From positions 3,347,022-3,411,021 of the forward strand of contig OY970399.1 of NCBI GenBank assembly GCA_963720545.1: a stretch of 64,000 nucleotides of DNA, written 5' to 3'. The notes under the pieces are model-generated. The model saw only the letters and a program-made list of their open reading frames with translations. It ran no database searches and was not told the DNA's origin. A program made the position numbers and the translations under genes. This DNA comes from an uncultured Acidobacteriota bacterium (GTDB taxonomy: Bacteria; Acidobacteriota; Vicinamibacteria; Fen-336). How positions within the stretch are numbered: the first letter of the stretch is position 1; each line of letters begins with the position of its first letter. Positions 6,951 to 58,388 of this stretch are shown in pieces.

Positions 6951-6954
6951 GAGC

Positions 6955-6972
6955 ACTGCGTCCGGACGCAGT
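6955..6972 (+). terminator. Terminator-like palindrome ACTGCGTCCGGACGCAGT 5 nt after the S10 peptidase stop (no T-tract)
   Basis: Perfect 18-nt palindrome seen directly; the lack of a U-tract makes intrinsic-terminator assignment tentative. Confidence 0.4.
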
Positions 6973-7058
6973 CCGTTCGGCGAGCATCGATTCGGGCAGT
7001 TGCTTCAGAACTTCGGGAGGAAGTAGAACCTTACGGGCGTAAGCGCCGTCCTAGGGGC

Positions 7059-11531: not shown

Positions 11532-12820
11532 TCGGGCCGCACCAGCCGCACCACCTGCACCGAGGAAAGCGTTCCGGGTGCCGCTGTTTCGAGGACGGGC
11601 GTCGTGTAGGCGATGTAGACCGCGTCGCCGATGCGGGCAGCGCGCGGCACGCCGCTGGACCGTGCCGGCAGGGTTGCGGAGACCGAAAGCGCCGCGCCGC
11701 GCCGGCCATCGGGAAACACCACGCGTGCGCGGATCTCGGCGTGTTCGGCGGCGCGCTCGATCCAGGTGACGAGCGCCGAGCCGTCGTCGAGCAGGACCAC
11801 GTCCACCCTGCCGATGGCCCCGCCGTCATCGATCGGCACGGGCTTGCCGAAGGTCTCGCCGGCATCCTGCGAGAACGCGACGAAGGCGCGCGCCCTGTTG
11901 TCGGCCATCGTGAACCACGCTGCGGCCACGGTGTCGCCGCGCGCATCGAGTTGCGGGCCGTTCACCGGGCAGGCGTTGATTCGCCAGCCGTCCGCCGCCA
12001 GCGGCCGCGGCCGCGACCAGACGTTGTCGCGTTCGTAGACGAAACTGATGTCGCGCACGTCTTCCCCGGGCCCGCCGCCGGCGCCGTCGCCGTTGGTCCG
12101 ATCGCGGTACGCGGCCACCAGTCCCTTCGCGGTGCGTGCCAGCGCCGTCTGGCAGCAGTCGCACACCCGCGAGTCGAGCACGGTCTCGCCCGAGACACGG
12201 TTGCGCGCGTCGAGCGAGGCGAACATCAACATCATCGCGCCGCCGGACGCCGTCTTCCTTCCGTCCAGCCACGTGAGCGCCATGGTCCCGCCAGCGAGCG
12301 GTTGCAGCGAGACGAAGCCGTGTTCGGTGGGGGAGCGGTCGCTCGACACCAGCACAGGCTTGCTCCAGGTGCGGCCGTTGTCGCGCGAGCGAGCGGCGAG
12401 CACCTGATACGCATATTGCTCCTCCGACACCTTCTGCAACCATTGCGCAACCAGGGCGCCGTCCGCCGCTGCCACGATGGCAGGGAAGTCTGCCCAGTTC
12501 ACGAACAGCCGCTCCGACCGCACCACCGTGACGGTCTTCGACCACTTTTCCCCGGCCAGCATCGCCATCCTCAAAGCACCCGATTCAACCCATGACAGGA
12601 TCAACCGCCCATCGCCGGTCGCCGACAGGAACGGCTCGGCCGCCCCCGGTCCGGCAGGGGAAACCACCGGCACGGCTCGCGGCGCAGGTCCCGCGTCCGA
12701 AGGCAAAGGCGTAGGCGTAGCCGACGCGGCGGACGGAGCACCGCCGCGCGAGCAACCGGCAACGGCGCAGAGCAGGAACAAGGCGAACGCGGCGCGAACA
12801 GGCATCGGCCTTTCTACCAC
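11528..12820 (-). CDS. BNR/Asp-box repeat lipoprotein (sialidase-like beta-propeller)
   Basis: Lipobox LLCAVAGCS; Asp-box motifs SRDNGRTWS and SQDAGETFG. Its stop overlaps the start of the downstream sulfatase-TPR gene by 4 bp. Start may be the internal ATG at 12805. Confidence 0.6.
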   Translation of the reverse strand: MVERPMPVRAAFALFLLCAVAGCSRGGAPSAASATPTPLPSDAGPAPRAVPVVSPAGPGAAEPFLSATGDGRLILSWVESGALRMAMLAGEKWSKTVTVVRSERLFVNWADFPAIVAAADGALVAQWLQKVSEEQYAYQVLAARSRDNGRTWSKPVLVSSDRSPTEHGFVSLQPLAGGTMALTWLDGRKTASGGAMMLMFASLDARNRVSGETVLDSRVCDCCQTALARTAKGLVAAYRDRTNGDGAGGGPGEDVRDISFVYERDNVWSRPRPLAADGWRINACPVNGPQLDARGDTVAAAWFTMADNRARAFVAFSQDAGETFGKPVPIDDGGAIGRVDVVLLDDGSALVTWIERAAEHAEIRARVVFPDGRRGAALSVSATLPARSSGVPRAARIGDAVYIAYTTPVLETAAPGTLSSVQVVRLVRPD

Positions 12821-12891
12821 GCGCCCGCGCGCGCCTGTGACCCGCGCATTTCAGGCTGGAAAGCCGCCCGCGCTACACTGGCCGTTCTCCC

Positions 12892-17194: not shown

Positions 17195-19288
17195 ATGCCT
17201 TCTCGCCGCCGGGCGCCGGTGCCCCCCGAAACCGCCGTCGAACCACGAGTTCCACCGGAACAGCCGCGCCTCGCGCCGGCCCTTGCCGACACGGTCTTCC
17301 AGATCACCAGCGACTACGAGCCCAAGGGCGACCAGCCGGCGGCCATCGAGGAGCTGGTGAAGGGCCTGGAGCGAAACGACAAGCACCAGTGCCTGCTGGG
17401 CGTCACCGGCAGCGGCAAGACCTTCACGGTCGCCTCGGTGCTGGCCCGCGTCAACCGGCCGGCGCTGGTGCTCGCGCACAACAAGACCCTGGCGGCGCAG
17501 CTCTACCAGGAGTTCAAGACCTTCTTCCCGAAGAACGCGGTCGAGTATTTCGTCTCCTACTACGACTACTACCAACCGGAGGCGTACGTGCCGCAGTCGG
17601 ACACGTACATCGACAAGGAATCCACGATCAACGAAGAAATCGACCGCATGCGACTGTCGGCCACGCGCAGCATCTTCGAGCGGCGCGACGTCGTCATCGT
17701 GGCGTCGGTGTCGTGCATCTACGGCCTCGGCTCGCCCGAGGCGTACTACGGCATGCTGTTGTTCCTGCGCCAGGGCGACTGGCTCGACCGGCGCGAGATC
17801 CTCGCCAAGCTGGTCGAGGCGCGCTACGACCGCAACGACTACGAGCTGAAGCGCGGCACCTTCCGCGTGCGCGGCGACGTGATCGAGATCGTGCCCGCCT
17901 ACGAAGAGGTCGGCATCCGCGTCGAGCTGTACGGCGACGAAATCGAGAAAATCAGCTCGTTCGACCCGCTCACCGGCAAGGCGCTCGACCGGCTGTCACA
18001 GGTGGCCATCTACCCGTCGAGCCACTACGTGACGCCCCGGCCGCGGCTGCAGGACGCCATCAAGCACATCGAGGAAGAGCTGATCGCCAACAAGGCGCGG
18101 CTCGAGCGCGACGGCCGGCTGCTGGAGGCCCAGCGCCTCTACCAGCGGACCATGTTCGACCTCGAGCTGCTGCGCGAGGTGGGGCACTGCCACGGCATCG
18201 AGAACTATTCGCGGCACCTTTCCGGGCGGAAGGAGGGCGAGCCGCCGCCGACGCTGCTCGACTACCTGCCGAAGGACGCGCTCATCATCGTGGACGAGAG
18301 CCACCAGAGCATCCCGCAGGTGCGCGGCATGTACCACGGCGACCGCGCGCGCAAGTCGACGCTCGTCGAATACGGCTTCCGGCTGCCGTCGGCGCTCGAC
18401 AACCGCCCGCTCAACTTCGAGGAGTTCGAGGCGCGGGTGGGGCAGTCGATCTACGTCTCGGCGACGCCGGGCGCCTACGAGCTGCAGAAGACGGCGGGCG
18501 TGGTGGTGGAGCAGGTCATCCGCCCCACCGGGCTCATGGACCCGCGCGTAGACGTGCGGCCGGTCACCGGGCAAGTGGACGACCTGCTCGCCGAGATCCG
18601 CCTGCGCGTGGCGCGCAACGAGCGCGTGCTGGTCACCACACTCACCAAGCGCATGGCCGAGGACCTCACCGAGTACTACCACGACCTCGGCGTGCGCGTG
18701 CGCTACCTGCACTCCGACATCGAAACGCTGGAGCGCGTGCAGATCCTGCGCGACCTGCGCAAGGGCGAGTTCGACGTGCTCGTGGGCATCAACCTGCTGC
18801 GCGAAGGGCTCGACCTGCCGGAGGTGTCGCTGGTCGCCATCCTCGACGCCGACAAGGAAGGCTTCCTGCGGTCGGGCGGCTCGCTCATCCAGACGATGGG
18901 CCGCGCCGCTCGCAACGTCGAGGGCATGGCCATCCTCTACGCCGACGTGATGACCGCTTCGATGAAGGCGGCCATGGAAGAAACCGCGCGCCGCCGCGTC
19001 ATCCAGGAGACGTACAACGCCGAGCACGGCATCACGCCGCAGTCGATCAAGAAGAGCATCAAGGACGTGCTGAACTCGGTGTTCGAGGCCGACTACGTCA
19101 CCGTGCCCGCGGACGACGACGGCAAGGACGACGACGACGCGTATCGCTCGATGGACGAGCTGGAGAAGGAAATCGCCCGAGTGGAGAAAGCAATGCGGGC
19201 TGCCGCCAAGGCCTTGGAGTACGAGAAAGCCGCCGAATTGCGCGACCGCATCCGCAGGCTGCGCACCACGGAAGTGGGCCTGCGCTAG
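17195..19288 (+). CDS. uvrB: Excinuclease ABC subunit B
   Basis: Helicase motifs ([13 protein letters not shown]), beta-hairpin region [14 protein letters not shown]-terminal UvrB/UvrC interaction domain. Start taken at ATG 17195 rather than track start 17147. Confidence 0.95.
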
Positions 19289-19373
19289 TCATCGACGGAT
19301 TGGCGGTCGTTCCCGTCCAATCCGTCGATTTCCGTTAGGCCGTTTCCCAGGCGCTTGCGTCAGCGTCCGTTCC
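19289..19373 (+). repeat. Repeat element copy 1: hairpin ATCGACGGATTGG-N13-CCAATCCGTCGAT (19291-19329) plus module CCCAGGCGCTTGCGTCAGCGTCCGTTCC (19346-19373)
   Basis: Perfect 13-bp inverted repeat starting 2 nt after the uvrB stop; the 28-nt module is identical to the reverse-strand copy at 36971-36998. Confidence 0.85.
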
Positions 19374-19634
19374 GATCTCCTGCTCCTGTGGCCGGCGAGT
19401 GGTCCTCCGCGCGGGACGTTCGGGCTCAGTGGAAAAATGTCCGCGCACTTCCCGCCAGTCGTCCGCTGCCACTGTGGCAATTGGTAACGCAACTGCGTCC
19501 GGACGCTGTTGGTTACCGAATGTAGCGCTCAAGGCGGAGCCCTGGGCAGCAGCACAAGCGTTCCGTCCTCGGGGAAACTTTTGCAGCAAACCGGGTTTGC
19601 CTGGGAGCAGTCTCTTCCTAGTAGGAGGTTCAAC

Positions 19635-35968: not shown

Positions 35969-36084
35969 TCGACGGATTGGCTTGTCCGTCCCCGTCCAAT
36001 CCGTCGATTTCCTGCTTGAGGTGTCGCACGGTGCAGCGAAAGTTCCCTCGGTCGCAGCGCAAGCGTTGAGCTCCTCGGGAAAAC
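35968..36084 (+). repeat. Repeat element copy 2: hairpin (35968-36008) plus module GCAGCGCAAGCGTT...CTCCTCGGGAAAAC (36054-36084)
   Basis: Same 13-bp arms as copy 1; the first base is shared with the ggt stop codon; the second module matches 19562-19591. Confidence 0.85.
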
Positions 36085-36086
36085 GG

Positions 36087-36953
36087 TTAGTCGATGCGGG
36101 CGACTCCGGGGGCGGTGGCGGGGAAGCGGTCGAAGATTGCGGGGTCGTGGCCGGGAACGATCCGGCGCCGGTCCTCGACGAGCTTCCCCATCCGGCTCTG
36201 CGCTTCCAGGTTGGCGGCGGCATCGAAGGTCTCGCCGATCGCGAGGTGGTTTTCCAGATTCTCGTAGAGATACGCGTTGTCGGAAGCGATCAGGACCGGG
36301 CCGACACGCGTGCCGACGGTCGCGTACTGGGAGGCGAAGGTGTGCCGCCCGCCGGTGTACACGCGGATCCCCGGGATGATCTCCTTGTCGTCGCCGTCCA
36401 CGAGCGTCACGCGCCCCGCGGCGCTGAGCTTCGCGAGCATCGCGGCGTCCACGGCCGACATGTCGTCGTGCAGCGCTTCGCCCTTTGCGCCGACGTAGTA
36501 CTCGTACTCGGCGCGCTGGATCCAGATGTGCGCGTTCGGGAACAGGTCGGCGCCGTCGAGATGGTCCCAATGCACGTGCGAGACGATGATGTCGGTGACG
36601 GCCTCCGGCGCAATTCCCGCGGCCGCAACGGCGTCGGACGGCTTGCGATAGTCGGCGGGTTTCCACGCCTTCATGAACTCGTCGCGGTAGAAGCCGGCGT
36701 CCACCAGCACGTTGCGCTTCTCCGGACCCTTCAGCAGCCACACCATCATCGCGCCGTCGCTCTTGCGGCTCGGGTCGGCGCCCGCCACGAGCTCGGAGGT
36801 CGGGAACCCGAGCAGCATGCCGTAGCGAACCGCGTACACCTCGTAGACAGGCGGAGCCGCCGCCACGGGCTGGGCGGCGGGCCGCTGCGCTTTGCAGGCT
36901 GGGAGCAGGGCGAATGCTAGCGGCAAGGCGAACACGAGGGTGGTCTTGGGCAT
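36087..36953 (-). CDS. MBL-fold metallo-hydrolase lipoprotein
   Basis: Lipobox LLPAC; metallo-beta-lactamase motif HVHWDH; start taken at ATG 36953. Confidence 0.75.
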   Translation of the reverse strand: MPKTTLVFALPLAFALLPACKAQRPAAQPVAAAPPVYEVYAVRYGMLLGFPTSELVAGADPSRKSDGAMMVWLLKGPEKRNVLVDAGFYRDEFMKAWKPADYRKPSDAVAAAGIAPEAVTDIIVSHVHWDHLDGADLFPNAHIWIQRAEYEYYVGAKGEALHDDMSAVDAAMLAKLSAAGRVTLVDGDDKEIIPGIRVYTGGRHTFASQYATVGTRVGPVLIASDNAYLYENLENHLAIGETFDAAANLEAQSRMGKLVEDRRRIVPGHDPAIFDRFPATAPGVARID

Positions 36954-36970: not shown

Positions 36971-37056
36971 GGAACGGACGCTGACGCAAGCGCCTGGGGG
37001 GACGACAAGAACGGCAATCGACGGATTGGACGGGGACGGAGAGCCAATCCGTCGAT
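36971..37056 (-). repeat. Repeat element copy 3 (reverse orientation): hairpin 37017-37056 plus 28-nt module 36971-36998
   Basis: Hairpin ends 6 nt after the def stop on the minus strand; the module is the exact reverse complement of 19346-19373. Confidence 0.85.
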
Positions 37057-37061
37057 GACAG

Positions 37062-37583
37062 TTACACGAACCGTTCGAATTCGTTGAGGAACGCGAGCGA
37101 GCGCATATCGCGCATGCGGTCGAGGTAGACGCTGCCGTCGAGGTGGTCGCACTCGTGCTGGATGACGCGGGCGAAGAAGGTGTCGGTTTCGACGACGTAC
37201 TTCCTGCCCTTGCGGTCGCGGGCTTCCATGCGCACCTTGCGGAAGCGGGGGACGACGCCGCGCAGGTCGGGGATCGACAAACAGCCTTCGAAACCGTCCA
37301 GCAGTTCGTCGCCGACCGCGGTCACCACCGGGTTGATGAGCACGGTCAGGGGCACCGCGTCCTCGGCACGCTCGTCACTCGCGTCGACCTCGATGACTGC
37401 GAGGCGCAAGCCCTCGTGAACCTGCGGCCCGGCGAGGCCGACGCCTTCGTATTCGTGCATGGTCTCGACCATGTCGTCGATGAGGCGCTGGATGCGCGGC
37501 GTGCGGATCTCGTCCACTTCCAGGTTGCGCGCCGCCTTGCGGATGACGGGATGGCCGATGCGAGCGACTTTCAGGATCGCCAA
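37062..37583 (-). CDS. def: Peptide deformylase
   Basis: TTG start preceded by AAGGAG gives MAILKVARIGHPVIRK; motifs GVGLAGPQV, EGCLSIP, HECDHLDG. Confidence 0.85.
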   Translation of the reverse strand: MAILKVARIGHPVIRKAARNLEVDEIRTPRIQRLIDDMVETMHEYEGVGLAGPQVHEGLRLAVIEVDASDERAEDAVPLTVLINPVVTAVGDELLDGFEGCLSIPDLRGVVPRFRKVRMEARDRKGRKYVVETDTFFARVIQHECDHLDGSVYLDRMRDMRSLAFLNEFERFV

Positions 37584-41676: not shown

Positions 41677-42336
41677 GTGCTACGCTCGGAGGAGGCTCCT
41701 GAAATGGCCGTCCTGCCGCCGATCATTCCCCTGTTCCCCCTGGGAGAGGTGGTCCTCTTCCCGAAGGTGGCGCTGCCACTGCACATCTTCGAGCCGCGTT
41801 ACCGGAAGATGACCGCCGACGCCCTCGCCGGCGAGCGCATCATCGGCATGACGCTGCTGCAGGCGGGCTTCGAGGCGAGCTACGTCGGCCGCCCGCCGGT
41901 TTTTCCGCTCGGCTGCGCCGGCCACATCGAAGAGACCGAGGCCCTGCCCGACGGCCGCTACAACATGCTGCTGCGCGGCGTGTCGCGCTTTCGCATCGTC
42001 GAGGAGCGCCACGGGCAGCCCTACCGGCTGGCGGCGATCGAAGAAGTGGAAGACGGCCGCTACGATGCCGCGCGCGTGGGTGCGATGCGCGACAAGATCC
42101 TGAACGCGGTGTCGGCGGCGTCGCCGCGGCCAACGCTGCTGGTGGTGCAGCCCGACGTGAGCGACGAGCTGTTCCTCAACACGCTGTGCCAGATGCTGCC
42201 GTTCGATGTGGTGGAAAAGCTCTCGCTCCTCGAATGCGACAGCCTCGGCCAGCGTTGCGACCGGCTCCTGGAACTCCTCGAGTACAAACGACTCACCGGC
42301 AACCTCGCCTCGGGCCGGGTCGAACGGCCTAACTAG
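41677..42336 (+). CDS. Lon N-terminal (substrate-binding) domain protein
   Basis: LON-N type N-terminus (IPLFPLGEVVLFPKVALPLHIFEPRY); no AAA+ or protease domain; start may be ATG 41704. Confidence 0.7.
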   Translation: MLRSEEAPEMAVLPPIIPLFPLGEVVLFPKVALPLHIFEPRYRKMTADALAGERIIGMTLLQAGFEASYVGRPPVFPLGCAGHIEETEALPDGRYNMLLRGVSRFRIVEERHGQPYRLAAIEEVEDGRYDAARVGAMRDKILNAVSAASPRPTLLVVQPDVSDELFLNTLCQMLPFDVVEKLSLLECDSLGQRCDRLLELLEYKRLTGNLASGRVERPN

Positions 42337-42378
42337 TCATCGGCGGATGGGCTTGCCGTTCACGACCCATCCGCCGAT
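42337..42378 (+). repeat. Repeat element copy 4, variant hairpin ATCGGCGGATGGG-N14-CCCATCCGCCGAT
   Basis: Starts 3 nt after the Lon-N gene stop; differs from the main type at paired positions on both arms. Confidence 0.8.
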
Positions 42379-47627: not shown

Positions 47628-49868
47628 ATGCGGGCGATCGGCAAGAGCGTGTTGCGCACGGAGGGCCCGGACAAGCTGTGCGGCGCCACGCGCTACACCG
47701 ACGACATCGAACCCGAGGGTTGCCTGCACGGCGTCACGCTGCGCGCGACCATCCCCTACGGGCGGATCCTGGCGATCGAGAAGGACCCGGCCTTCCCCTG
47801 GCGCGAGTTCGTGGTGGCGACCGCGAAGGACCTGCCGGGGCCCAACCGCGTGCAGCTCATCGAGGACGACCAGCCGCTCCTCTGCGAGGAGTGGGTGCGC
47901 CATCCGTACGAACCGATCCTGCTGGTGGCGCACGCCAACCGCTCGCGGGCGTACGAAGCCCTCCGGCACATCCGTGTCACCTACGAGCCGCACGAGCCGG
48001 TGCTCTCGATCGACGACGCGCTGGCGGTGAAGCAGAAGCTGCGCGGCGAGGACAACGTCTTCAAGTCGTTCCACATCGTGCAGGGCGACATCGACGCGGG
48101 CTTCGCGGCGGCCGACCTCGTAGTTTCAGGCGAGTACACGGTGCCGCACCAGGAACAGGCCTACATCGAGAACAACGTGATGACCGCGTGGTTCGAGGCG
48201 GACGGCACGCTGGTGGCGCACGGCTCGATGCAGTGCCCGTACTACGTGCACAAGGCGCTGCGCGGGTTGTTCAAGCTGAAGGGCGAGAAGGTGCGGGTCA
48301 TCCAGGCGCCGACCGGCGGCGGCTTCGGCGGCAAGGAGGAGTACCCGAACATGATCGCTGGTCACGCGGCGCTGCTGGCGCGCAAGGCGAAGCGGCCGGT
48401 GAAGATCGCCTACGACCGCCACGAAGACATGGCGGCCACCACCAAGCGCCATCCGGCGCGCATCCGCCACCGCACCGGCGTGAAGCGCGACGGCACACTG
48501 GTGGCGCAGGACATCGAGGTGGTCATGGACGGCGGCGCCTACATCACGCTGTCGCCCGTGGTGTTGTCGCGCGGCACGCTGCACGCGACCGGGCCGTATG
48601 CCTGCCCCAACGTGCGCATCCGCTCGAGTGTGGTCGCGACCAACACCGTGCCGAACGGCGCCTTCCGTGGTTTCGGGGCGCCGCAGACGCTGTTCGCCGC
48701 CGAGCTGCACATGGCGCGCATCGCCGCCGAGCTGCGCCTCGACCCCGTGGCGCTGCGCGAGAAGAACGCGGTGCGCCGCGGCTCGGTGATGGCGACCGGC
48801 CAGGTGCTGCGCGAGAGCGTCGGCGCGCGCCAGGCGCTGCAGCGCGTGGTCGCCGACTCCGGCTATCGCCGCAAACGGGTCGAGCACGCCAGGTGGAACG
48901 CGCAGCCGGGCACTGCGCACTGGAAGGGCGTGGGCCTGGCGCTCGTCCACCACGGCTCGGGCTTCACCGGCAGCGGCGAGGAGCACCTCGCGAGCCGCGC
49001 CGCGGTGACGCTGACCCGCACCGGCCGCATTCGCGTGCTCGCCGGCTCCACAGAATTCGGCCAGGGGACCAACACGATGTTCAGCCAGATCGTCGCCGAG
49101 ACGCTCGGCGTCGCGACAGCTCTCGTCGACGTCGCGACTCCCGACACCCGCTTCGTCCCCGACAGCGGGCCGACGGTGGCGAGCCGCACCTGCATGGTCG
49201 TCGGCCGCCTGGTGCGCGACGCGTGCCGCGACCTGCACGCGGCGGTCAGCGGCCGCAAGCCGTTTCCGCGCTCGGCGCGCGACCTGCGCGCGGCCGCGAA
49301 GCGCGTCTGCGGCACGCGCGACGAGGTGCGCTTCGAGCGCCAATACGAGAAGCCGGCCGCCATCACCTGGGACGACACCACCTACCGCGGCGATGCCTAC
49401 GAAGCGTACGGCTACGCCGCGGCGGTGGTGGACCTCGAGGTGGACAAGCTGACGTTCGAGGTGACGCTGCGCCGCGTCACGCTCGCCGCCGACATCGGCC
49501 GGGTGGTGAACCCGGTGCTCGCCGCGGGCCAGGTGATCGGCGGCGCGGCGCAGGGCCTCGGCTATGCGCTCCTCGAGAACCCAGTGTACAAGGACGGGGC
49601 GATGCAGAACGCGCAGCTCACGAACTACATCATCCCGACCGCGAAGGACCTGCCGCAGATCGACGTCGCTTTCACGCCCGCGCTCTACTCGCTCGGGCCG
49701 TATGGCGCCAAGGGTGTGGGCGAGTTGCCGATGGACATTCCCGGGCCGGCGGTGGCCGACGCGGTGCACGACGCCACCGGCCTCTGGATCACCTCGCTGC
49801 CGGTGCTGCCGGAGAAGATCGCTGCGGCGCATGGCGCCCGCCGGCGCGGCACCGCGGTGCCGGCGTGA
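47628..49868 (+). CDS. Xanthine dehydrogenase family, molybdopterin-binding large subunit
   Basis: 746 aa from ATG 47628; XDH/aldehyde oxidase large-subunit blocks (GGGFGGKE, FRGFGAPQ, GQGTNTMFSQIVAE). Confidence 0.85.
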   Translation: MRAIGKSVLRTEGPDKLCGATRYTDDIEPEGCLHGVTLRATIPYGRILAIEKDPAFPWREFVVATAKDLPGPNRVQLIEDDQPLLCEEWVRHPYEPILLVAHANRSRAYEALRHIRVTYEPHEPVLSIDDALAVKQKLRGEDNVFKSFHIVQGDIDAGFAAADLVVSGEYTVPHQEQAYIENNVMTAWFEADGTLVAHGSMQCPYYVHKALRGLFKLKGEKVRVIQAPTGGGFGGKEEYPNMIAGHAALLARKAKRPVKIAYDRHEDMAATTKRHPARIRHRTGVKRDGTLVAQDIEVVMDGGAYITLSPVVLSRGTLHATGPYACPNVRIRSSVVATNTVPNGAFRGFGAPQTLFAAELHMARIAAELRLDPVALREKNAVRRGSVMATGQVLRESVGARQALQRVVADSGYRRKRVEHARWNAQPGTAHWKGVGLALVHHGSGFTGSGEEHLASRAAVTLTRTGRIRVLAGSTEFGQGTNTMFSQIVAETLGVATALVDVATPDTRFVPDSGPTVASRTCMVVGRLVRDACRDLHAAVSGRKPFPRSARDLRAAAKRVCGTRDEVRFERQYEKPAAITWDDTTYRGDAYEAYGYAAAVVDLEVDKLTFEVTLRRVTLAADIGRVVNPVLAAGQVIGGAAQGLGYALLENPVYKDGAMQNAQLTNYIIPTAKDLPQIDVAFTPALYSLGPYGAKGVGELPMDIPGPAVADAVHDATGLWITSLPVLPEKIAAAHGARRRGTAVPA

Positions 49869-50581
49869 TCAACCTCTCGGTCAATGGCCGCCGTCGCGCC
49901 TTCTCGGGGCCGCCGTGGAAGCGCCTCCTCGACGTGCTGCGCGAAGACTTCGCGCTGACGGGCACCAAGGAGGGCTGCGGCGAAGGCGAGTGCGGTGCCT
50001 GCACCGTGCTCATAGACGGCGCCCCGGTGAACAGCTGCCTGATCCCCGCCTGCCAGGTCGCCGGCCAGCGCGTCGAGACGATCGAAAGCCTTGGCCGCCC
50101 CGCGGCGCTGAGCGTCTTGCAAGAACGCTTCCTCGCGATGGGCGGCGCGCAGTGCGGCATCTGCACCCCGGGCATGCTGATGGCCGCCTGGGCCCACGTC
50201 AAAGCCGGCGGCTCCGCTTCCCCCGACGCTGTTCGCGAGCAACTGGCCGGCAACCTCTGCCGCTGCACCGGCTATCAGGCGATTGTGGATGCTGTTATTG
50301 AGACGATTCGTCTTGAGACGATTCGAAAATCGCTAAAGCGAATCGTCTCAATTCCGGGCCAGAGGTCCGTTGCCGCTCCCAGGAAGAAGTCCGTCCGTCC
50401 TCCCAGGAAGAAATCCGTTCGTTCTCCCAAGAAGAGAGCGGCGCCGCTTTCCAGGAAAAGGACCGTCGCGTCCGCCACAAAGAAATCAGCAGCGCCTGAC
50501 AAACGGAAATCTCGTCCTCGGAGGAAGTCCGTTGTCAGGTCAGCTATGTCTCCGAAGACGAGAAGCGTGAAGACGAGATAA
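49865..50581 (+). CDS. Xanthine dehydrogenase family [2Fe-2S] small subunit with Lys/Arg/Ser-rich C-terminal repeat tail
   Basis: GTG start overlapping the large-subunit stop; two 2Fe-2S motifs (CGEGECGACTV and CGICTPG...CRCTGY); ~75 extra C-terminal residues PRKKSVRPPRKKSVRSPKKRAAP.... Confidence 0.8.
   Translation: MINLSVNGRRRAFSGPPWKRLLDVLREDFALTGTKEGCGEGECGACTVLIDGAPVNSCLIPACQVAGQRVETIESLGRPAALSVLQERFLAMGGAQCGICTPGMLMAAWAHVKAGGSASPDAVREQLAGNLCRCTGYQAIVDAVIETIRLETIRKSLKRIVSIPGQRSVAAPRKKSVRPPRKKSVRSPKKRAAPLSRKRTVASATKKSAAPDKRKSRPRRKSVVRSAMSPKTRSVKTR
50298..50475 (+). repeat. Lower-GC repeat block inside the small-subunit 3' region: TTGAGACGATTCG direct and inverted copies (50298-50351) and ~24-bp tandem repeats (50377-50475)
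   Basis: Perfect 13-bp inverted repeat 50313-50325 / 50339-50351, an extra direct copy at 50298-50310, then degenerate CTCCCAGGAAGAAGTCCGTCCGTC-type tandem units. Confidence 0.8.
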
Positions 50582-57257: not shown

Positions 57258-57728
57258 ATGGCCCCTCCCGCGATTCGCGACGCGACCGCCGCCGACCAGG
57301 AGTTCGTGATCGCGACCGCGGCGCGCCTCGCCGAATTCGGCCCGCCCGAATCGCGCCCGGCAACCGAACTGGTGGCGGGCGAAGTGCGGACGCTGCGCCA
57401 GTGGTTCAAGGCGCCACCTGCGGGCACGCGCGTCATCGTCGCGGAGTCGGCCCAGGGCGAGCGCCTCGGCTTCGCCTATCTCGAGCCCGTGGTCGAATAC
57501 TTCCTCCGCGAGGAACACGGCCACCTTGGCATGATCGCGACCGCCGCCGGCGCCGAAGGCCGGGGCGTCGGCTCGGCGCTGCTCCGGGCCGCCGAAGACT
57601 GGTGCCGCGCGCAGGGCTATCGCCGGCTCACCCTCAACGTGTTCGCGAACAACAGCGCCGCGCGCGCCGTCTACGACCGCAAGGGCTACGTGCCGGAGAC
57701 GATCCACTACGTCAAGCTGCTCCGCTAG
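57258..57728 (+). CDS. GNAT family N-acetyltransferase
   Basis: 156 aa; acetyl-CoA binding motif region (RGVGSALLRAAEDWCRAQG). Confidence 0.7.
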   Translation: MAPPAIRDATAADQEFVIATAARLAEFGPPESRPATELVAGEVRTLRQWFKAPPAGTRVIVAESAQGERLGFAYLEPVVEYFLREEHGHLGMIATAAGAEGRGVGSALLRAAEDWCRAQGYRRLTLNVFANNSAARAVYDRKGYVPETIHYVKLLR

Positions 57729-57732
57729 TCGT

Positions 57733-57821
57733 CATCGGCGGATGGGCCGCCTCGCCGACCATCCGCCGATTTCCGTTCGTCCATTCTTTCGTTCCCAGGC
57801 GCTTGCGTCCGGGTCCGTTCC
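57733..57821 (+). repeat. Repeat element copy 5: variant hairpin (57734-57770) plus module CCCAGGCGCTTGCGTCCGGGTCCGTTCC (57794-57821)
   Basis: Starts 6 nt after the GNAT gene stop; same stem variant as copy 4. Confidence 0.85.
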
Positions 57822-57928
57822 GGTGGCCGTTTCCTGACGGTCACTTGCGGCGCGCAGGACCACTCGCCGGCCGCTATCGAGCTACGGCGCTCAGACACAG
57901 TAGCAGAGATCCGGACGGTACGGCCGAT

Positions 57929-57999
57929 GACGCAAGCGCCTGGGGAACGGACTAACGGAAATCGACGGATTGGACGCGAACGATCGCCAATCCGTCGAT
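57929..57999 (-). repeat. Repeat element copy 6 (reverse orientation): hairpin 57961-57999 plus module core GACGCAAGCGCCTGGGG (57929-57945)
   Basis: Main-type 13-bp arms; inverted relative to copy 5 about 190 bp away. Confidence 0.85.
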
Positions 58000-58016
58000 G
58001 ACTGGCGGTGTAGAAC

Positions 58017-58388
58017 ATGGACATGAACCTCGCGCAACACGTCCTGCTGAAGAGCTTCGAGAGCCCCGACGAGGTACGCCGCTTCGAAAGAGGCCGGTTC
58101 GAGACGGTGCGGATCGGCGCGCTCACGATCGGCCGCGCCACCTACGAGCCCGGCTGGAAATGGTCCACGCACGTCGGCGCCCTCACCGGCCAGACTGCCT
58201 GCACCGTCGAGCACGTCGGCCTGGTGGTGAGCGGCGCCGCGGTCGCGGCGTTCGCCGATGGCTCGGTCGCGGAGCTGCGGCCCGGCGTGGTCTTCCACAT
58301 CCCCGCGCATCCCCACGACAGCTGGGTGATCGGCGACGCACCCTACGTGTCCCTGCACTTCGTGGGCGCCGACCACTACGCCAAGTAG
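58017..58388 (+). CDS. Cupin domain protein
   Basis: 123 aa, small beta-barrel pattern with conserved His (HIPAHPHDSWVIG). Confidence 0.6.
   Translation: MDMNLAQHVLLKSFESPDEVRRFERGRFETVRIGALTIGRATYEPGWKWSTHVGALTGQTACTVEHVGLVVSGAAVAAFADGSVAELRPGVVFHIPAHPHDSWVIGDAPYVSLHFVGADHYAK

Follow-up and report, generated by a model that had tools for sequence, protein, structure and literature searches.

The short palindromes described here are probably subtypes of one REP-like family, in which a selectively maintained, putatively transcribed 3'-end hairpin may have spread as folded single-stranded DNA. They represent a new family of the known REP/BIME-like class in a Vicinamibacteria (Acidobacteriota) species complex, REP-like and not a proven REP/RAYT system. 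The stretch of DNA analyzed (64 kb, hereafter the window; G+C = 69.9%) carries chromosomal genes of an ordinary kind (uvrB, a Ser/Thr kinase, ggt, def, infA, fpg and a purine-catabolism cluster). The nearest relatives of its UvrB outside its own species were 88% and then ~83% identical, and those named were Vicinamibacteria.

Paralogs were compared in an alignment of 8 hairpin copies (6 from the window and 2 from contig L014), all from a single species complex, and a covariance model was built from the same eight copies. For orthologs, a four-strain alignment of the window with L152, L153 and L154 was used. These are syntenic 20-kb sister-strain loci (95-98% nucleotide identity) retrieved via the IF-1 protein of the window; the alignment contained three orthologous hairpins (ggt, def, lonN), with a pairwise divergence of 1.4-4.7%.

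Table 1. Hairpins and associated modules in the window, with gene context and covariance model score.
Feature	Position	Strand	Context	Score (bits)
Main hairpin, 13-nt loop	19291..19329	+	2 nt after uvrB TAG (19286-19288)	80.8
Main hairpin, 15-nt loop	35968..36008	+	First base is the last base of the gamma-glutamyltranspeptidase (ggt) TAA	65.6
Main hairpin	37017..37056	-	5 nt after def TAA (37062-37064, minus strand)	71.9
Variant hairpin	42339..42378	+	2 nt after TAG (42334-42336) of the Lon N-terminal-domain gene (lonN)	68.9
Variant hairpin, one G.A mismatch	57734..57770	+	5 nt after GNAT acetyltransferase TAG (57726-57728)	60.4
Main hairpin, inverted relative to 57734	57961..57999	-	17 nt upstream of ATG at 58017	78.3
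Accessory module TTCCGTT..CCGTT.CCCAGGCGCTTGCGTCAGCGTCCGTTCC	19330..19375	+	Directly 3' of hairpin	
Accessory module, further copies	36971-37016, 57771-57822, 57916-57960	-, +, -		
47-nt module GGCCGGCGAGTGGTCCTCCGCGCGGGACGTTCGGGCTCAGTGGAAAA	19390..19436	+	Found again behind hairpins of other loci and other strains	
BIME-like composite	57734..57999	.	Variant (+) and main (-) hairpins, accessory module behind each, converging on a central segment	

Six hairpin copies were found in the window, all between genes, four of a main type and two of a variant type (Table 1). The unit is a palindrome of 37-41 nt with a 13-bp stem and an 11-15-nt loop. The main-type arms, ATCGACGGATTGG and CCAATCCGTCGAT, form perfect inverted pairs in all four main-type copies. 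The variant-type arms are ATCGGCGGATGGG and CCCATCCGCCGAT at 42339-42378, and in the second variant copy the right arm reads ACCATCCGCCGAT (ACCATCC...), which puts a G.A mismatch next to the loop and leaves 12 of the 13 pairs. With up to 2 mismatches allowed, the arm motif had 12 matches in the window against 1.56 expected, a number reached in 0 of 100 shuffles. The arm 13-mer and its two-position variant occurred in the window as inverted pairs only and never singly; the single unpaired match was an unrelated 2-mismatch hit, and exact or near-exact matches were all paired. By covariance model the six copies scored 60-81 bits in the sense direction and 28-38 bits in the antisense direction. 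Nothing else exceeded 12.6 bits (the next best hit), so the window is without decayed copies. Predicted RNA folds of the copies were stable (z = -2.2 to -4.8; the 19291..19329 copy -29.3 kcal/mol, z = -4.8). In Rfam the window had no match at gathering thresholds, and the sole match at E-value level was BjrC68, at 16.5 bits (its gathering score is 39).

An earlier note on this DNA had claimed that main and variant hairpins differ at the same two stem positions on both arms, and this was borne out: only stem positions 5 and 11 differ, A-T and T-A in the main type each becoming G-C in the variant. In the alignment of eight copies, two pairs were changed on both sides and none on one side only. 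Its statement that pairing is preserved stands for 103 of 104 stem cells, which are Watson-Crick, with no G.U pair (0/104), and fails at the G.A mismatch of the 57734-57770 copy. By our own arithmetic, two changes per arm would land on partner positions with complementary bases by chance in ~1/702 of cases. Both covarying pairs are found in one and the same pair of copies, and these have in common, besides, an A at the loop end (T in the main type). The changes therefore mark one subfamily split, not independent events. Loops, said in the earlier note to differ freely, do not: although they differ between paralogs they have a common pyrimidine-rich consensus, C..(C)CGT(T/C)C.CGT (pyrimidines at 76 of 108 loop bases in sense orientation), and between strains orthologous loops are almost invariant. 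Among main-type copies, variable columns numbered 0/26 in the stem vs. 8/15 in the loop (Fisher 7e-5).

The last of these claims, that the stem itself is what is maintained, fared better than the argument given for it. The covariation is thin, amounting to two pairs, and the maintenance of the hairpin is supported mostly by evidence beyond the two-type comparison, namely the lack of any stem variation in orthologs, the invariant stems and variable loops of main-type copies, and the lack of decayed copies. The stem sequence, not just its pairing, is conserved among paralogs and orthologs, which points to sequence-specific recognition in addition to structure. Conserved arm sequence and symmetric variants would also be expected if the arms were half-sites of a palindromic operator, bound on double-stranded DNA by a dimeric protein without a hairpin forming. 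We regard this as extremely improbable, given that a rigid dimer would not tolerate an arm spacing of 11-15 nt (12-15 if the mismatched pair of the 57734 copy is counted as loop), that the sites lie behind stop codons and not at promoters, that arms are never single, and that the loop and flanks, which are asymmetric, are oriented in a fixed way with respect to the gene before them.

No wobble route exists for the T-A to G-C change, which takes two transversions with no paired intermediate. Through template switching during replication, a change in one arm can be transferred to the other as a single event, with no selection on pairing involved, and the process is known to generate and preserve perfect stems and substitutions that look compensatory (PMC8794818). 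Were the double changes a mutational by-product of this kind, copied from arm to arm in single intrastrand events, the covariation would be uninformative on structure; strictly Watson-Crick pairing, the two transversions and the confinement of both changes to one subfamily (compatible with one or two events) agree with such an origin. Paired arm changes recur in this genome, as two other palindrome families show the same kind of difference. One is a second stop-proximal hairpin, 4 nt after the TAA of a TPR lipoprotein gene (L014 4836-4860, minus strand; L144 11031-11055, plus strand), which has the flanks of the repeat family (CGTC / TTCCGTT), a different stem and a GAA triloop, and is terminator-like. 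It reads ATGGCACGGGC-GAA-GCCCGTGCCAT in L014 vs. ATGACAC...GTGTCAT in L144, a compensated G-C to A-T change in situ; the two transitions are compatible with a G.U intermediate.

Template switching, however, does not lower the substitution rate, and the strain comparison showed hairpins ~10x less variable than synonymous sites. Over the three orthologous hairpins in four strains, 1 of 121 columns was variable in the whole hairpin (a 1-nt loop deletion) and 0 of 78 in the stem, against 275 of 2603 third codon positions (10.6%; P = 2e-5 for hairpins, 1.7e-4 for stems). The hairpins were likewise far less variable than their own flanks (46 of 180 columns, or 26%, within 30 nt on each side; Fisher 1.6e-10). 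The ggt, def and lonN hairpins were present in all of L152, L153 and L154; those of def and lonN were identical throughout, and that of ggt had identical stems with the loop deletion in L153/L154. Together with the window's lack of decayed copies, and with position, orientation and copy number left unexplained, this makes template switching very unlikely as the whole explanation; it could give the variant's origin, not the persistence of the hairpin. Since loops differ between paralogs but orthologs retain them, conversion among copies is unlikely to have homogenised them, and the aligned strains are most simply read as showing purifying selection on each resident hairpin. Conservation of resident copies in situ is not expected of a purely selfish element, and this weighs against the REP-like reading.

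Changes in the flanks were largely structural and started at the stem foot. Indels began exactly at the hairpin 3' foot and ranged from 39 to ~390 nt: after the ggt hairpin an insertion of ~390 nt was found in L153 and one of ~85 nt in L154, and after the lonN hairpin a 39-nt indel in L153 and L154. The def copy also differed between strains in its 5' flank (TAACTGTC vs. TAGCCGCC). In L014, a tandem doublet of main-type copies lies 2 nt after the exbD TAG, where L144 (95-97% identical) has a single copy. The hairpins are thus constant by purifying selection, and the DNA at their feet is a hotspot of insertion, deletion and accessory tandem amplification.

The 3' flank of the hairpin is usually TT(T/G/A)CCGTT, followed by an accessory module of the form ..CCGTT.CCCAGGCGCTTGCGTCAGCGTCCGTTCC. 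The accessory unit (~40 nt, ..CCCCAGGCGCTTGCGTCAGCGTCCGTTCCTTTGT) was present in one to four tandem units depending on strain (L154 11505-11660; L153 12800-12880; window 36971-37004), with four behind the def hairpin in L154. A separate 47-nt module was 47/47 identical between the window and L144 11870-11916 and was also found within the ~390-nt insertion after the L153 ggt hairpin. The hairpins of the 57734-57999 composite are unlike subtypes in inverted orientation, ~190 nt apart, and form the only inverted pair seen; the RNA fold of 57724-58010 reached -159.4 kcal/mol (z = -7.7). A 92-nt inverted repeat (I1, 91% complementary) joins 19283-19374 with 57916-58007. Variable accessory modules and one inverted unlike pair resemble the mosaic BIME organisation of E. 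coli REPs.

These foot-precise changes allow a further reading, in which the hairpin is a site-specific docking point at gene 3' ends where attC-like or REP-targeting recombination shuffles non-coding 3'-UTR modules. It is prompted by modules of 39-~390 nt that are gained or lost, between strains only 2-4% apart, precisely where the 3' foot of an invariant hairpin lies, and by the position of that hairpin no more than 5 nt from the stop codon. We consider it quite unlikely, and we know of no such arrangement described for Acidobacteriota.

A composite module of ~300-400 nt, present or absent between strains, was observed to recur downstream of hairpins (L153 ~12500-12890, window 19376-19600, L144 11630-12020). 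Its parts include the 47-nt block (GGCCGGCGAGTGGTCC..CAGTGGAAAA), which is also repeated internally in inverted form, and TCCGGA palindromes. It may represent a non-coding RNA or a small mobile element in its own right.

In five of the six window copies (uvrB, ggt, def, lonN, GNAT) the hairpin starts -1 to 5 nt from the stop codon, in sense orientation, and the joint chance of such placement for five copies positioned at random within their own spacers is ~1.5e-6. The exbD copy of L014 is placed in the same manner. The sole window copy not behind a stop codon is 57961..57999. The C-terminus of UvrB aligns to its end with homologues and is native, so the hairpin follows an intact gene and does not truncate it. 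Downstream, the 37017..37056 copy lies 27 nt upstream of the start of a metallo-beta-lactamase-fold gene, and a PDZ gene begins 51 nt beyond the 42339..42378 copy. Every copy that follows a gene is preceded by TAG or TAA, and non-TGA stops make up 55% of window genes (P ~0.03). The element does not appear to supply the stop codon, as P is only ~0.03 and TAG is already the stop at lonN and def in the sister species.

Sense orientation and abutment on stop codons are what would be seen if the hairpins were purely host-encoded RNA elements, that is, intrinsic terminators or 3'-end stabilisers, maybe bound by a sequence-specific RNA-binding protein, that arose by duplication or convergence with no transposition machinery. 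The strong in-situ conservation between strains, the pyrimidine-rich sense-strand loops and the stable predicted folds agree with this, as does the second stop-proximal hairpin of L014/L144, which has the same flanks and a G-C to A-T change that a G.U intermediate would allow. A function of structure only would not, however, need identical 13-bp stems in eight paralogs; no G.U pair is seen among the 104 stem cells, the minus-strand copy at 57961 is behind no gene, orthologous sites in the sister species are without copies, and indels starting exactly at the hairpin foot point to processing at the DNA level. As to intrinsic termination itself, the terminator scan picked out none of the hairpin copies, whose loops (11-15 nt) are longer than the 3-8 nt that it allows, and the hairpin tail (TTTCCGTT) is only moderately T-rich; the scan flagged a small hairpin inside the accessory module (36994-36977). 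We therefore hold a purely host-encoded RNA element to be possible but unlikely. A Rho-utilisation reading of the downstream C-rich modules was unsupported (C/G 0.67-2.06, with clear skew at one locus only).

The family is restricted in its distribution. No hairpin copy was found in 44 kb of largely syntenic sequence of the sister species GCA_973789185.1 (vs. the window, UvrB 88% and a xanthine dehydrogenase-family Mo-binding subunit 81% identical), including the uvrB, def and lonN ends, and none in the examined sequences of the more distant relatives L140, L149 and L150. The family has therefore arisen or expanded within this species complex. A scan of genome contigs with N at the two variable positions returned 17 loci, comprising 16 unrelated palindromes and L014, the only family member. 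A metagenome scan with a pattern that proved too loose (ATCGNCGGN{20,36}CCGNCGATTNCCGTT) gave unrelated coding sequences among the at least 120 matches listed and no added copies. A viral-contig scan gave 2 matches, both unrelated, and plasmid BLAST gave none. L014 was at one point taken for a distant lineage with 97-100% identical modules, which would have implied horizontal transfer; this was rejected, as its TPR protein is 100% identical to a protein of the source contig, so that L014 is of the same species as the window. L014 (CAVXLQ010000012.1) is recorded as 'uncultured Actinomycetota bacterium' and encodes TonB/ExbB/ExbD/SecDF, and the label looks wrong. The genome scan gave one hairpin locus only in the L014 MAG, vs. 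at least 3 copies per 20 kb in the sister strains. The Logan short-read contig L141, with 99.86% identity to the window, breaks off within the 57961 hairpin (L141 1-54), consistent with the repeat breaking short-read assemblies.

REPs are extragenic palindromes of 20-50 nt, with several types per genome and unlike types paired in BIME mosaic arrays (PMC8266576). The present hairpins are short palindromes able to form a stem-loop (37-41 nt, 13-bp stem) in many, exclusively extragenic copies (six in 64 kb, plus two in L014). On the 5' side of the palindrome, CTAG/GTAG followed by TC was found in 4 of 8 copies and CCAG followed by TC/TA in 2 of 8, the TAG being also the stop codon of the gene. 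A domain search of the ~40 window ORFs gave no Y1/HUH or any other transposase. There is one inverted pair of unlike types (57734 on the plus strand and 57961 on the minus strand); other copies are single or in the tandem doublet of L014.

In E. coli REP/BIME elements (y, z1, z2; TnpAREP/RAYT) the palindromes are likewise extragenic, 20-50 nt long and divided into subtypes differing at stem positions, unlike subtypes being inverted and arranged with linker motifs in mosaic arrays (PMC8266576), and many lie within 15 nt of a stop codon, affecting translation and mRNA decay (PMC12306157). In contrast to the E. coli REPs, the stems here are perfect, with no conserved bulge, and the loops are long; a GTAG-type 5' tetranucleotide is not conserved in any clear way, the window showed no RAYT gene, the spacing of the single inverted pair is far wider than in BIMEs, and abutment on stop codons is much tighter. 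Perfect palindromic stems are found in Group 3 REPs (Stenotrophomonas maltophilia, Marinomonas). In Marinomonas the tetranucleotide lies 2 bases from the palindrome (PMC8266576), and here the order (C/G)TAG, TC, stem was seen in half of the eight copies. Group 3 REPs differ in having stems of 5-16 nt and loops of 3-4 nt and in being adjoined by known cognate TnpAREP genes, nothing comparable to which was seen in this window. REPINs of Pseudomonas fluorescens SBW25 have, as here, two highly conserved inverted arms with a spacer that is less conserved, and their hairpins commonly carry compensatory changes (PMC3116915). They differ in being ~70-100-nt doublets, random in extragenic space, whose resident copies decay, whereas the ~40-nt unit here is tied to stop codons and stays conserved in place from strain to strain.

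Inverted pairs of DNA uptake sequences act as terminators in Neisseria and Haemophilus, where a short word peculiar to the species is found in inverted pairs shortly after genes; such words are also abundant as single copies inside genes, and the arm 13-mer here was never single in 64 kb. A MITE was rejected: the composite 57734-57999 has inverted ends, but its flanks (CTAGTC.. / ..TGGCGG) show no target-site duplication, the hairpins at its two ends belong to different subtypes, and most copies stand alone. A literature search on Vicinamibacter and repetitive extragenic palindromic sequences found no paper in the collection searched, and to our knowledge REP-type repeats have been studied almost entirely in Proteobacteria.

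For the preferred reading, a maintained 3'-end hairpin of REP type, the following mechanism is proposed. The hairpin would be transcribed as the 3' end of the upstream mRNA, where a stable stem-loop could block 3' exonucleases and help termination. Ribosome stalling is known for REPs that lie no more than 15 nt from a stop codon (PMC12306157), and a hairpin inside the ribosome footprint at the stop codon would have to be melted by the terminating ribosome. As DNA, the family would have spread in folded single-stranded form through a hairpin-specific enzyme, possibly of the REP-associated tyrosine transposase type, and the feet may still be processed by a hairpin-specific activity, giving the strain-to-strain mosaicism. 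Either level needs pairing of the arms, which explains why both changes of the variant are present on both arms. An RNA role is favoured by the sense orientation and the abutment on stop codons, and recognition at the DNA level by the strict Watson-Crick symmetry, the identical stem sequences and the foot-precise indels; both roles may apply. The hairpins offer a clean REP-like case in an uncultured soil acidobacterium, with resident copies under purifying selection and pinned to stop codons while their flanks turn over, and they bear on the long debate on whether REPs are selfish DNA or host-beneficial RNA elements. Main and variant stems provide a simple handle for separating pairing from sequence; no new principle is revealed.

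Several further repeats were recorded. A palindrome at 50313-50351 was not counted as a family member, since it lies inside a coding tail and scored only 12.6 bits. It has a perfect 13-bp stem and a 13-nt loop (TTGAGACGATTCG..CGAATCGTCTCAA), GTC..TTCCG flanks and an extra direct copy of the left arm, in a context of lower GC (0.56; 50290-50581) that reads as the Lys/Arg-rich C-terminal tail of a 2Fe-2S small-subunit ORF (49865-50581). Three TCCGT..CTCCCAGGAAGAA repeats are present in this tail, and the subunit has 238 aa here vs. 217-228 aa in relatives. An intergenic block, CCCTCGGTCGCAGCGCAAGCGTTGAGCTCCTCGGG(A/G)AAACG, was shared by the window (36044-36088) and L014 (4212-4256) with 95.6% identity, and abuts the stop codon of a converging gene at both loci. 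The types of a small palindrome family, ACTG(C/T)GTCCGGAC(G/A)CAGT (ACTGCGTCCGGACGCAGT; variant ACTGTGTCCGGACACAGT), differ by a paired C-G to T-A change; its sites are 6953-6974 and 19490-19511 in the window and 11929-11952 in L144, and one copy lies directly behind the TGA of an S10 peptidase gene.
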